A stretch of 64,000 bases of DNA from Glycera tridactyla (Eukaryota): positions 31,806,001 to 31,870,000 of the forward strand of contig OZ286469.1 in the NCBI GenBank assembly GCA_965644265.1. Direction: 5' to 3'. How positions within the stretch are numbered: the first letter of the stretch is position 1; each line of letters starts with the position of its first letter. Made by a program: the position numbers and the translations under genes. The notes beneath the pieces are model-generated. The model saw only the letters and a list, made by a program, of their open reading frames with translations. It made no database searches and was not told where the DNA came from. Below, one piece after another: positions 53,701 through 62,140 of this stretch.

Positions 53701-56700
53701 TGCAGATGGAAGCTCAGTGAATGAACAGTATCGATTGTTTGCTGTAAGCCTTAGCTAAGTCTAAATGCATCATTGGACAGTACTCGGTATCATACTTTCC
53801 AAGTTTCGAGTGTGATTTCAAACATGAAGATGAGGATTTAGACCATGGGTATTTCATAATAAATGATCAGTATGAAAAGACCTTTAAAATTAGCTATTTT
53901 TCATATATATACAAGATAATTTCACATAGGGGCTGCCGGACACTGACGGGAGGCCTGTTGTGACCAACTTTTACGTTAAAAAGGCCCCAACTTGTAAATT
54001 TAAAAAAATTCCAAAAAAAATCATGGGTGCTCCTGGACCCAAGCCTCACCCCAATCTAGCTCAGCAAGTTGATACGGCAAAAAAGTGAAATTCTGAAACA
54101 CCCTAATATGCCTATATGCTTCTACATCCAGAATGATTTGTTGGAGGGGGTTATGACAGTGCCCAGGTGTACATCTGTGTGAAATTATGGCACTTGTTTT
54201 CAAAGGTCCACAAAGATGCCATTTGAGGAGGGGGCTGATCCACTGGACTGAGGCTGTCTGTGGTCTCGGAAAAGTCTTTTCAGGCCTCTAAACCTCTACT
54301 TTCGAAAACACTATATCAAACACACATTTCAACCCACCATATTCAGTACTGATAGACTGGATGTGCTGTCCATGTGACATTTAAATAATATTAGGAGTAT
54401 AATAACGAAATAGATGTAATGAACATATCTATCAGATGCTCGAAAGATATCAGGTTTACCTCAAGTAACCTTGTGTGGAACCTACTTGCAAGTCAATATG
54501 ACCAGCTATTCATTACTTGAAATCACATCAATATTCAATCTCTAGGGGATGACAAATAAATGTGGACCTAGCCATTATATGAATTATTTGAATGTCACCA
54601 TCTTCATATTGTTTCAGTCTCAAATATGAATGAGGATTTGATTGTGGTCATCTCAGGTCAATCACAGAGTTTTATTGTAAAATCCGACTGGAAATATCCT
54701 ATTTAAACCCCACAGAATATTATATAAGTGTTTGTAATTATTGTAGGCATTGTCTGTAGTCTGGTCCTAGATCCCAAGAGACAATTCATGCAATTGCTGC
54801 CGAGATATATTCATTATTGAGATGCCGATACTGTCTGAATTCATGAAAAGCCTACAAAATGCCACCTAGTGGCAGAAATTGTCAATATAGGGATTTGCCA
54901 AGAGTATTTCTAATCATTGTAGGGATTGTCTGTAGTCTGGTCCTAGAACCCAAGAGACAAATTATGCAATTGCTGCAGAGATATACCCATTATAGAGATG
55001 CCTATACGTTCTGAATTCATGAAAAGCCTGCAAAACGCCACCTAGTGGCAGAAATCATCAATATCTGGATTTGCCAAGAATGTTTCTGATCATTGTAGGG
55101 ATTGTCTGTAGTCTGGTCCTAGCACCCAAGAGACAATTCATGCAATTGCTGGAGAGATATACCCATTATTGAGATGCCTATTCTGATTGGAATCATGAAA
55201 AGCTTCTGAAATGCCACCTAGTGGCAAAAATTGTCAATATCTGGATTTGCCGATAGTATTTCTTATTATTGTAGGGATTGTCTGTAGTCTGGTCCTAGAA
55301 CCCAAGAGACAATTCATGCAATTGCTGCAGAGATATACCCATCTTTAAGAAGCCTATACTGTCTGAATTCATGAAAAGCCTGCAAAACGCCACCTATAGT
55401 GGCAGAAATCGTCAATATAGGGATTTGCCAACGTGGTTCTATATCCAGAATGATTCAGTTTGGTTATGTGGACAAGTGTGCCAAGTTTGGTACTTGTTTC
55501 CAAAAGTGCACAAACATGCCCTTTTTTTGGGCTTATCCACTGGACTACATTGGTGTAGTATAATCTCAACCTAATGCTTTCCATATTTCAATAACTGTGT
55601 TTTGTTAAAATGGTTAGATGTGCCATCGCTGGGTTAAATATGTTCAGTTTGTTAGCTAGATCAAATCAGCCAGGAACACATGATATACAAAATCCTCTTG
55701 GCTGATTCATGCTAAAAACCCTCCTTCATTTTCGCCATTGATATCACCTTTTGAATTTTCTCCAGATTGCTAAAAAAGACTTCAGTGTACTTCAAATGCG
55801 TTAAGGGTCTTGTTCAAATTCATGCTGTGAATTTTCAATACATCTTGACTTCGATCTATCTGAAATTAGCGCATCTCTACCTGTTTTTTTTTTATTTTAC
55901 TGCCTCGAAAAGAATTCTCTCTGATAAGACTGTGCAACAAGGGAGGTTTTTTTTATGTGAACCAATCCAGTTGGTAGACGTTCATTGATTTCATTCAAAA
56001 ACATTGCTATTTTCTTGCAGGTAGTGTTGATGTCAGTTCTGAAGATACTTTTGAGCAGTGCTAAAAACTGTGGAGTAGCCATGTGGCTCACATATGAGTT
56101 CACCCCAATTAGAAATAGTAGACAAGTGATCATGACTGTTCACCAGTGTTGTAGCTGTTTTCTAAAATAAGATATAAAAATTGTCATTTGCAGCATCATA
56201 TCCTTTTCATTCCCTGGTGCATACACAGCCGAGAAGAGGTATGATAGAAGGATCTAGTTTTCTTCTCACATATTTTACCAGACCTCTGAAATATGGTATT
56301 CCTTCCATGATGGATGACTATCATTTGAAAAATGCAATATTTTAGTCAATCTCATTGTTTCACTCCCATCAGGGAATCATTGATCATGGACACGTTTCCC
56401 AATCTACGTAATATTACCGTAGGATAACACCAGGAAGGAGAATCTATACAATGGGAATGTAAATGTAAAGAATGATCATTATACTTTGAGGCACAAGGAA
56501 TCGTGTGACATTATCACGAAAGATTCTGTAGCAATATTAATGTTGGTAGTAGGAGTAGTAGTATTGGAAGCAGAAGTAATAGTAGATATGATAATGATAT
56601 CATTATCATCATTATCATAACCTTCAGTGGCAGTGGGAGAATAATACTAATGATATATCACGAGATTTCAATTTCATCAAGGTGTTGAGAATAATTGGTC

Positions 56701-56706
56701 ACCCAC

Positions 56707-56808
56707 ATATTTCGCAGATGGGTCCAGTGTATAATACAGGACAACAACAAGTGCAAGCATCAGTGCCTAGCATGCTCCTGTTCTGGCATTGAGTATTGGG
56801 GCATTTCA
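56707..56808 (-). CDS. Intact 102-nt phase 1-1 EGF-like exon
   Basis: ttgttccccag|...|gtgggt; reads KCPNTQCQNRSMLGTDACTCCCPVLYTGPICEI. Confidence 0.85.
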
Positions 56809-57358
56809 CTGGGGAACAAATATGGGACACAATGTATCGTTTGAATAATCATAGACATATAGTGGAATGCATGATGATCTTAATCATTACTATGATGATG
56901 ATCATCCTCATGTCATCATCATCATTACTTCTACCGTATCGCCGTATTATCACATTTTGGATCAATAATACGATATAGTGATACACTGATCGATGATAAA
57001 GAGATGGTAATAATGATGATGATGGTTCTGACAGCATTGATGATAGTGATGATGACAAGATATCAAAGGCAAAGTGATGATCAGTAGTCAAACATGAAAT
57101 GTGTTGTGGTGAAAATGCACTCGAAGTGCTACTGTAACTAGACAGAGGATTGGTGAATTTCCATGGGCCACAACCCCTATCACATGGACATGGATATCAA
57201 TATTCATCTTTCAATTGGGGTAATCACAAATTTGCAACTTTAGTCTGCAATATACGGATTATTTTATGACATACTAAAAATACTAAATTCCGAAGGGTAT
57301 ACAGCATCACTAATATGCCTGACAGGTGTCTCCTGTGTAGATTTCTCAGGCGCTTCCT

Positions 57359-57513
57359 GACAATGACAATGACAATGACTATGGCGAATCTTTTATTACA
57401 TTAGGCAGATACAGCTTGACATGCAAGCAACTTCATCATATACCTTTCAGCAATCAGATCCAGACTTGTTTCGCTGCCATGACCTATCTTCCCTGTGAAT
57501 CGGCTGGTGGAGA
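57359..57513 (-). mobile_element. Non-LTR retroelement 3' fragment inserted into the EGF part of exon 2
   Basis: AATAAA followed by a (GTCATT)n tail on the minus strand, splitting the EGF motif between GTLDIDA and YTGDTC. Confidence 0.65.
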
Positions 57514-60763: not shown

Positions 60764-60865
60764 GTATTTCACAGTTGGTCCCGGTGTAGAATGCAGGGCA
60801 AGTGCAAGTGCAGGTAAAAGTGTTTACCAACCCTCCATTATGGCAATGAATATCGGGACATTTCT
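60764..60865 (-). CDS. Intact 102-nt phase 1-1 EGF-like exon
   Basis: gattgttttccag|...|gtaagt; reads KCPDIHCHNGGLVNTFTCTCTCPAFYTGTNCEI. Confidence 0.9.
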
Positions 60866-61900
60866 CTGGAAAACAATCATACGACACAGTATATCACTTG
60901 AATGATCATAAAGCTTATTGTGGTATGTTTGATTATCATAATAATGATAATGATAATAATGACAATAATAAAAATAATGATAACTATGATAACAATCACA
61001 ATGATAATGATGATAATGGTATCATTGATAATAATAACGATGATTTGATTTGATAATAGTGATAATGATATCATTATTAAAGCAGTAACAATAGGAATGA
61101 TGAAAAAGCGTTGAAAGGCAAAGTGATAATGAGATGTCAAACTTCGAAAGTGTCTTCAGAAAAAATGCATTCGAAAGAGCTCCAGCATCTAGACAGAAGA
61201 TGGGTGTATCTTCGGAAGTCGCATTCTTTGTTACATGGACATGAACGTCAAAATATACCTCACTGCTGGTGTATATGGATCATTTCAAGAACTACTAGAA
61301 CAATATCAAAAAACATGCTGCATCACTAACATGTTTGACAGGTGTCTCCTGTGTAGAAGTCTCGGCAGCTACATGTGCAGCCATCTGGCTCCAGTATTCC
61401 ACCAATTTAACATATCTTGTGATCAGATGGAGGATCACATAAGCCGCATGTGACTAGACAGTCGTTACTACTACTGATTGATATAATATGATGATATGAT
61501 AATGAAGCAATAATAGTGAAAATGATGATGACAAAATTAGCAGTTGTAATAATATTGATTGCAGAGCGTGGAAATACGTGAAAAAGAGTTTGTCACTTGT
61601 TCAGTTGTCTTGTTTTGCATCATATCATATCATATCAGTTCGAGTGTAATCTAAGACAATGTCATGTTAAATCATGATGTGCGAAGAAGATTTGTGACAA
61701 CAATTTTTTGAAGAACCCACTTATTACAAAAAATCTAACTATGCAGATGGAGGGTGGATGGATGGATAAACGGATGTAAGAATGGAGAGATAGATAGACA
61801 GAGAGATGAATGAATGGATGGATAGATGGATGGATATATAGATGGATGTCCAGTACACTGTAAATAACAAAATGTGAATGAAGGAGTCAGACAATCTCAC

Positions 61901-61955
61901 CATTTAGGCCAGATGCTAGCAGCACAAGGCAACAGAATACTATAATTCTAGGCAT
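61901..61955 (-). CDS. Signal-peptide first coding exon (phase 1)
   Basis: ATG CCT AGA ATT ATA GTA TTC TGT TGC CTT GTG CTG CTA GCA TCT GGC CTA AAT G|gtgaga = MPRIIVFCCLVLLASGLN. Confidence 0.8.
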
Positions 61956-62140
61956 CCTGGCTGTTCTCTCGATAGTGAAGCAGGAACGTTACCAACACTT
62001 CTCTCTCCTTGACGCATCATGATCATTAAGAGCAATTAGTACTTATACATGATTGGCCATAATTAGCTACCTCGCCTTGGGGTTTATCATATAATTATTT
62101 CGGCAGTTGTAATGACCGCCTGAATTGTAATGACTGCCTA

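Follow-up and report, generated by a model that had tools for sequence, protein, structure and literature searches.

What is left of a cysteine-rich secretory protein (CRISP) gene once its CAP domain is gone, and is the remainder still a gene? The question is raised by a minus-strand locus at 55900..62060 of the window, the 64,000-nucleotide stretch 31806001-31870000 of contig OZ286469.1 (G000:C29) in the 2.04-Gb, 207-contig genome assembly of Glycera tridactyla. A preliminary description of this sequence had read the locus as a cluster of stand-alone secreted ShK-like/EGF peptide genes, comprising at least two full gene skeletons and one partial copy, all of them disabled. The locus is instead a CAP-deleted duplicate of an adjacent intact CRISP gene, here called P1, and it is still weakly spliced. 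We tentatively lean toward reading it as a young, weakly transcribed leftover of the CRISP duplicate rather than a selected gene.

A single gene whose tail exons were duplicated internally

Five cysteine-rich modules, A1, A2, B, C1 and C2, are found on the minus strand, as had been proposed, in a region free of N runs. Duplicated exon-plus-intron blocks here are 68-73% identical and lie about 2 and 4 kb apart, and two phase-1 EGF exons of 102 nucleotides are present, again in agreement with the initial account. The features of the locus, from its 5′ end, are as follows.

61956..62051, minus strand: TATA-like box (62047-62042) and 5′ untranslated region (UTR), homologous to the intact CRISP paralogue P1
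61901..61955, minus strand: E1, the only signal-peptide exon, 55 nucleotides, 18 codons, open, with a phase-1 GT donor
61470..61900, minus strand: start of intron 1, homologous to P1 until about 61729, then ATC-rich sequence; probable site of the deletion
61331..61466, minus strand: A1, the dead 3′ two-thirds of a ShK-EGF exon, 80% identical to P1 exon E9
60764..60865, minus strand: A2, an intact EGF exon of 102 nucleotides, phase 1 to 1, with six cysteines
59945..60134, minus strand: duplicated intron block, not a ShK relic, 66% identical to its twin
59506..59940, no strand assigned: high-copy interspersed repeat of about 430 bp (SINE-like, putative class) in the intron between A2 and C1
58814..58899, minus strand: B, a dead partial EGF copy, 5′ part and cysteines lost, donor kept, skipped by the RNA joint
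57568..57674, minus strand: coding part of C1, a ShK-like domain with an intact phase-1 acceptor and a TAG at 57570-57568
57315..57567, minus strand: likely 3′ UTR derived from the EGF half of the C1 exon, with an insertion and an AATAAA, the old donor lost
56707..56808, minus strand: C2, the second 102-nucleotide EGF exon, open, downstream of the stop
56179..56355, minus strand: twin of the 60134-59945 intron block, 66% identity

A1 lacks its 5′ part and the first EGF cysteine and carries a stop at 61409-61407. A2 keeps its AG and GT sites and is single copy in the genome, and C2 has an altered NGG motif, an extra cysteine and a weaker donor. Counted with its former EGF half, the C1 ShK-EGF module extends over 57674-57320.

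The region of the signal exon has two matches in the genome, itself and the first exon of P1 (C29:31900203-31900396). Identity between the two is 72% across the promoter, UTR, exon and start of intron 1 (62051-61729 in the window), and 13 of the 18 residues encoded by E1 are shared with P1 exon 1. The E1 peptide consists of a basic residue followed by a hydrophobic core (8-mer hydropathy 3.6), and its assignment as a signal peptide is based on hydropathy together with homology to P1. A scan of 55900-62100 for hydrophobic ATG-to-GT stretches gave seven candidates, of which only 61955-61901 is a real signal exon; four of the others fall in an ATG microsatellite, one is off-frame inside the last EGF exon, and one lies downstream of all modules.

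An ATG-GT stretch ahead of copy C, at 57802-57757, might pass for a second signal exon. It contains a stop and aligns at 62-68% with the intron that precedes the matching exon in two paralogues (alignment scores of 199 and 274, against shuffled maxima of 43 and 44), so the two full gene skeletons dissolve into one. The supposed further ShK-like relics, at 60134-59945 and 56355-56179, fared no better: the two blocks match each other (66%) but no other genomic sequence, and neither is picked up by a DNA profile built from 12 ShK exons. The same profile detects C1 at E=9e-20, along with a 30-nucleotide ShK remnant of A1. Because there is a single signal exon, and because an RNA contig described below joins "copy A" with "copy C", the window locus is one gene with internally duplicated tail exons and not several stand-alone genes.

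Transcript evidence

Three runs of contigs from one study, X1-X3, none of them recorded as RNA, are guessed to be RNA, and their intron-skipping contigs suggest that they are; contig depth cannot be used to rank genes. Contig 18 of run X3 (278 nucleotides, depth 6.0) contains A2 (60865-60764) spliced to C1 from 57674. The joint skips 3,093 nucleotides, including the duplicated intron block, the interspersed repeat and B, and is seen in one of the three runs. The contig differs from the genome at about 9 of 266 letters (about 3%), and P1 contigs differ at up to 7 of 210 letters per exon. Since neither A2 nor C1 is closely duplicated elsewhere in the assembly and the divergence is within the P1 range, the contig is best read as an allele of the window locus. 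It covers the C1 stop, with no change listed there, and four of the five classified differences between RNA and genome change a residue. Contigs of run X3 also reach 57512 and 57383, the latter being a position at which a short repeat begins.

Short contigs in the same run cover E1, their depths summing to 5.1. The phases agree (1 at the end of E1, 1 to 1 across A2, 1 at the start of C1) and all AG and GT sites are intact, from which we infer a join of E1 to A2. A single matching letter ahead of A2 in the contig agrees with E1 but not with A1; it fits equally well the hinge or EGF exon of an allele that retains the CAP domain. In binned data, where such gaps are no evidence of silence, contigs left the 3′ part of A1, B and C2 uncovered in every run, and likewise E1, A2 and C1 in X1 and X2.

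Probable loss of the CAP exons

DNA profiles of the propeptide, four CAP and hinge exons found nothing in window positions 50001-64000 beyond one match at E=0.99, and the 29-codon propeptide exon of P1 likewise has no match in that interval. Searches with tblastn for CAP, hinge and propeptide found no trace within 55900..62060. Profiles and tblastn both uphold the earlier observation that the signal exon and the modules have no CAP domain between them. Homology to P1 intron 1 ends at about 61729, and homologous sequence resumes midway through a ShK-EGF exon. The stop in homology, together with the silence of the CAP, propeptide and hinge profiles, suggests that the CAP exons were lost by deletion. 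An attempt to date the deletion through a resemblance of 61740-61470 to P1 intron 7 was abandoned. That alignment scores 67 and ranks second of 1,510 tiles, and it is not specific, because the window's own ATC-rich intron scores 69.

P1 lies on the minus strand at C29:31900294-31884214, 16-32 kb from the window locus. Its 12 coding exons are open and compatible in phase: signal, 29-codon propeptide, four CAP, hinge, EGF, three ShK-EGF and a last ShK exon. The CAP domain profile PF00188 matches above its cut-off at C29:31895774-31896079, three of the P1 CAP exons match successive parts of the CAP profile, and a profile of one CAP exon built from nine paralogues matches snake CRISP structures at 5e-10. 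An atlas search gave only a weak CAP lead (0.75). The last five coding exons and a UTR exon of P1 are joined at predicted GT-AG sites in all three runs, in contigs of 1559-1805 nucleotides. Contigs in X1 and X2 carry 783-791 nucleotides ahead of the EGF exon, compared with 736 nucleotides of predicted upstream coding sequence. A paralogue that shares the signal exon thus has four CAP exons and is spliced in RNA contigs, which is the observation that the preliminary description had itself named as refuting its reading.

Judged by its layout and by named database matches, P1 is a CAP-ShK type II (Mr30/Tex31-like) CRISP, and as such a new member of a known family. A protein search with a P1 tail exon returned 63 proteins, and CAP is present in 15 of the 36 that were scanned. 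Among 30 clusters of tail-module relatives that were looked up, 16 carry a species name, and all of these are molluscs (gastropods, bivalves and a chiton); proteins named "cysteine-rich venom protein Mr30-like" from Patella, Littorina, Babylonia, Elysia and Liolophura are included. This bears out the suggestion that the modules recall the C-terminal tail of molluscan-type CRISPs. Word-index protein searches gave no match with the P1 tail exon and a single 107-residue fragment with the CAP exon profile. The window gene lacks the CAP domain and is for that reason a derivative, not a member, of the CAP-ShK type II CRISPs.

The CAP-less layout itself is not unique to this locus, since sequence collections contain other proteins with a signal peptide, EGF-like and ShK-like modules and no CAP domain. 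Four of 36 sequences, P0038, P0043, P0046 and P0060, were judged by eye to have this layout, and they match at E 8e-6 to 6e-4. Within the Glycera genome the tail exon has 46 matches. The loci inspected were the C29 cluster, two on C10, one each on C18 and C34, and two on C39; matches on C4 and the remaining ones on C39 and C18 fall outside this set. The inspected loci are CAP-bearing genes or orphan broken tails, with no intact CAP-less paralogue among them.

EGF-like and ShK-like modules

Pfam profiles back the domain assignments consistently, though below the cut-off: ShK matches 12 of 14 aligned modules and EGF_2 matches nine of 14. A2 matches EGF_2 at E=0.11, and its AlphaFold model (predicted local distance difference test, pLDDT, 86) has EGF domains as its nearest structures, with a template modelling (TM) score of about 0.76 and none at E<=0.001. 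On the basis of this model, A2 is predicted to fold as an EGF domain. The family EGF profile matches Notch EGF repeats at 1e-7.

C1 reaches 14.3 bits with PF01549 (cut-off 20.9; E=0.061). Its six canonical cysteines align with those of 13 paralogous modules, and the ShK-like spacing reported for copy C is confirmed. The only Protein Data Bank match of the ShK family profile is the ShKT peptide OspTx2a, at E=0.75, and the AlphaFold model of C1 (pLDDT 50, no control folded) is uninformative, being too poor for a fold search. C1 also has an odd, unpaired seventh cysteine, which recurs in an orphan copy on contig C34. The loop between its third and fourth cysteines contains an adjacent Arg-Tyr pair, found in this one of the 14 aligned ShK modules, and no Lys-Tyr pair.

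The TAG at 57570-57568 directly follows the sixth ShK cysteine of C1. Among six CAP-bearing paralogues, three stop directly after the last ShK cysteine, two stop one residue later, and P1 stops three residues later. Beyond the stop, the EGF half of C1 is broken by an insertion that is also present in the C34 copy, the splice donor is lost, and no AATAAA or ATTAAA other than the AATAAA at 57397-57392 occurs over the next 1.5 kb. The lost donor and the sole AATAAA make C1 look like a terminal exon, as judged from sequence.

The disabling events listed in the preliminary description are largely real; their consequences are not as supposed. Both nonsense codons, at 61409 and 57570, exist, and the second is the normal end of the family rather than a lesion. 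An ATC-rich stretch does replace the expected first half of a ShK domain, outside the three open exons. The retroelement insertion corresponds to the high-copy repeat at about 59506-59940 (5,646 first-look candidates in the genome; all 40 of those scored match at 83-85%), which is intronic and only putatively SINE-like. The donor after copy C is indeed lost, at a point past the stop in likely 3′ UTR. E1, A2 and the ShK part of C1 are open, and no disabling lesion lies in the reading frame that is used; every lesion is confined to introns, skipped exons or the likely 3′ UTR, outside the coding parts of these three exons. With three exons open and two of them joined in an RNA contig, the claim that all copies are disabled does not hold.

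Two further observations concern the short EGF exons. The starts of both (60876-60850 and 56812-56789) weakly match a ShK exon start by DNA profile (E 0.03-0.08), and the intron downstream of the 102-nucleotide EGF exons matches the intron of the first ShK-EGF exon of P1. The 102-nucleotide exons may be ShK-EGF exons shortened by internal deletion.

Selection or an inherited open frame

The reading toward which we lean, a leftover of a CRISP duplicate, would have arisen in four steps. First, a CAP-ShK type II gene would have been duplicated, as the homology to P1 indicates. Second, and in an order that the anatomy leaves to conjecture, tail exons were probably duplicated and decayed, and a stop after one ShK domain with a polyadenylation-like signal would have made C1 terminal, giving the gene the EGF-ShK end usual in the family. 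Third, a deletion starting in intron 1 would have taken the propeptide, four CAP, hinge and first EGF exons, all of which are absent. Fourth, the signal exon would be spliced in frame to A2, ahead of the observed splice of A2 to C1; because the flanking introns are all phase 1, E1 can be joined in frame to the next usable acceptor. The open frame was perhaps inherited from a time when the CAP domain was still present. If translated, the transcript would yield a secreted signal-EGF-ShK product, a peptide of about 70 residues directed to the secretory pathway, and the known roles of its domains predict binding to a surface receptor or channel without the CAP anchor.

Several observations weigh against a mere leftover. 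E1, A2 and C1 keep the ATG, splice sites, frame and all 12 canonical cysteines. In a neutral simulation, all three exons stayed intact in 14-25% of runs at 0.03 changes per site and in 4-10% at 0.05, and in 0.1-0.9% at 0.10 and <0.1% at 0.15; non-coding sequence has diverged from P1 by 0.23-0.35 in total. In A1, private changes number 14 non-synonymous and two synonymous, a decay of about 0.2 per site, and if the CAP deletion is as old as the death of A1, a leftover of this kind fails as an explanation. Finally, contig 18 carries 11 letters upstream of A2 among which the E1-A2 join is not read, and the transcript evidence as a whole comes from contigs of one study whose RNA status is guessed.

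The CAP deletion cannot be linked to the death of A1; up to that deletion this may have been an ordinary gene of the CAP-EGF-ShK type, with A1 skipped. The finding of the A2-to-C1 joint in one run of three, the residue-changing differences between RNA and genome and the odd seventh cysteine of C1 also speak for a leftover. A2 and C1 are no more constrained than the unused copies: 7 of their 22 private changes are synonymous (p=0.18 against neutrality), compared with 15 of 42 in C2, B and the C34 copy (p=0.025). Exon divergence is not below intron divergence (0.39 vs 0.22 and 0.32 vs 0.26). The pairwise ratio of non-synonymous to synonymous rates (dN/dS) against P1 modules is 0.17-0.27 in live and dead modules alike, with A1 at 0.82, and because it is low in both it does not separate one from the other.

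The strongest rival, which we consider possible but less probable, is a working CAP-less mini-gene, in which an old deletion has been followed by selective maintenance of the signal, EGF and ShK exons for a secreted peptide of about 70 residues. Three phase-compatible exons with intact sites are open, such survival is expected in at most 1% of neutral runs at a divergence of 0.10 or more, and the A2-to-C1 splice and the E1 cover in X3 are of similar depth (6.0 and 5.1). The stop right after the last cysteine, as in three of six CAP-bearing paralogues, the terminal appearance of C1 conferred by the lost donor and sole AATAAA, the predicted EGF fold of A2, the Arg-Tyr pair that one of 14 modules possesses, and the four of 36 matching proteins that by eye have the same CAP-less layout are all in keeping with it. 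Against this, the purifying signal is not significant and the unused copies are equally constrained, and C2 is open even though it lies past the stop, so the simulation may understate neutral survival. The joint is seen in one of three runs, the seventh cysteine is unpaired, the ShK model has a pLDDT of 50, and the deletion is not datable. The fuller version of this idea, an EGF-ShK peptide gene born from a CRISP by in-frame CAP deletion, given a repeat-borne polyadenylation signal and kept by selection, is in our judgement possible to the same degree.

A deletion private to the sequenced haplotype is improbable. Other animals would then carry a full-length CAP-EGF-ShK gene, and the contig would derive from such an allele. 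The contig, with differences of about 3%, does come from another individual or allele, the one matching letter ahead of A2 also fits the end of a P1-type hinge or EGF exon, and intact exons would need no selection on the short form. However, the locus has no known second set of closely related CAP exons, and the edge of the deletion lies in ATC-rich sequence with no sharp, recent junction. More improbable still is that an ordinary CRISP gene was deprived of its CAP exons by faulty assembly. There are microsatellites on either side of the missing part, but the region has no N run, the assembly of 207 contigs is chromosome-scale, and three neighbouring CRISP genes were assembled through similar repeats. 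A set of two or three independent ShK/EGF peptide genes, all dead and each supplied with a signal exon of its own, would account for the duplicated exon-intron blocks and the several real lesions, and can largely be dismissed in view of the one signal exon, the stop-containing intron sequence that is the candidate for a second, the CAP exons of the paralogue and the contig that joins "copy A" to "copy C".

Comparison with known systems

[quoted passage not shown] Their tails are described there as EGF-like domains mixed with poorly recognisable ShKT domains, with frequent duplication of genes and domains (PMC6409789). P1 has this full layout. The window gene shares the signal peptide and the tail of EGF-like and ShK-like modules, and differs in lacking the CAP domain, the N-terminal spacer of 30-50 residues and the hinge. 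Because type II genes are reported as mantle-specific in oyster, membership in the family does not imply a venom role (PMC6409789). In the same account the CAP domain is described as a lipid-binding anchor, and the Lys-Tyr dyad of ShK domains as neither necessary nor sufficient (PMC6409789). The Arg-Tyr pair of C1 loosely recalls that dyad, as a resemblance in sequence only.

ShKL peptides, the stand-alone ShKT peptides of sea anemones, nematodes and Cumia, are a second point of comparison (PMC6409789, available part). If the E1-A2 join is real, the window product would resemble them as a short secreted peptide with one C-terminal, six-cysteine ShK-like domain. Unlike them, it has an EGF domain before the ShK domain, as the RNA contig indicates, and so would not consist of a signal and ShKT alone; its ShK domain has a shorter loop between the third and fourth cysteines, a seventh cysteine and no Lys-Tyr pair, and it is related to CRISPs. 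Short ShKT peptides are described as rare in molluscs and of open origin, with an ancestor containing multiple ShKT domains suggested for Cumia ShKL (PMC6409789).

The closest precedent in mechanism is the snake venom P-IIIe disintegrin-like/cysteine-rich protein VaaMPIII-3, encoded by a metalloproteinase gene whose catalytic part is deleted. This protein, as far as the accessible text of PMC9028321 describes it, is likewise a duplicate of a multidomain gene in which the main domain has been deleted, leaving a cysteine-rich tail alone, and it too has an unpaired cysteine. It belongs to a metalloproteinase family and was purified as an active protein, whereas the window locus offers a weak spliced contig only. 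A description of CAP loss in CRISPs was not found in the open-access literature searched for it, nor in the available text of PMC10210398 on cnidarian toxins.

A decayed CRISP copy is in itself ordinary, because duplications of the family and of its tail are already described (PMC6409789, available part). Less ordinary is that a signal-EGF-ShK unit remains in frame, and spliced, after the loss of the CAP exons. If functional, the locus and its intact neighbour would allow a direct test of an EGF-ShK tail without CAP; if selected, it would show, beside a surviving parent gene, how small toxin-like peptides can derive from CAP-ShK proteins. If not functional, it would be a clear snapshot of how such a peptide could start.

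The CRISP family and neighbouring sequence

To the right of the window, three CAP-bearing CRISP genes lie in a row at C29:31884214-31932876 (L017-L022). They are P1; P2, on the plus strand and open from CAP to the last ShK exon, with its signal exon not located; and P3, on the minus strand, with a frame-shifted EGF exon. This cluster supports birth and death of genes. The evolutionary mode suggested in the preliminary description is accordingly visible in the duplication and decay of the family; at the window locus itself there is one gene, and a CAP-less secreted peptide is only its candidate product.

Between P1 and the window (L016), orphan tail exons lie at 4478-4269, 1962-1753 and 292-150 on the minus strand and at 9908-10000 on the plus strand. 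Two of them are open ShK-EGF exons (mutual dN/dS 0.16); a last ShK exon that is broken and an EGF end in tandem copies make up the rest, and DNA profiles found no CAP exons in L016. Either alternative 3′ exons of P1 or a further truncated copy may be represented here. At L016:8900-5900 on the minus strand, motifs resembling reverse transcriptase, recognised by eye, lie in a decayed LINE-like stretch.

The orphan copy on C34 (48812-50467; L067, L068) lies near the contig end among telomere-like and tandem repeats. It duplicates window positions 58224-57287, an intron and ShK exon with the same insertion, and no signal or EGF exon was found upstream of it. Its ShK part is open, with a stop four residues after the last cysteine. 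At C10:14750968-14755848 (L025), orphan ShK-EGF exons carry a frameshift, and CAP exons are absent within the 30 kb examined. More CAP-EGF-ShK genes are located at C10:18.90-18.92 Mb, C18:56.42 Mb, C39:36.05-36.13 Mb and C39:45.81-45.87 Mb, some tandemly repeated and some with long EGF-only tails. The CAP-EGF-ShK family is large in the Glycera tridactyla genome.

An Rfam scan gave four matches, all at chance level. Beside the gene, at 51553-54106 of the window, is a 2.5-kb element bounded by long inverted repeats (187-nucleotide arms, 92% complementary), likely a non-autonomous DNA transposon, which sits between two oppositely oriented 176-bp tandem arrays (48960-49605 and 54727-55431). Directly upstream of the TATA-like box are two copies of a 210-bp interspersed repeat (62139-62350 and 62622-62834), of which the window contains at least five further copies.

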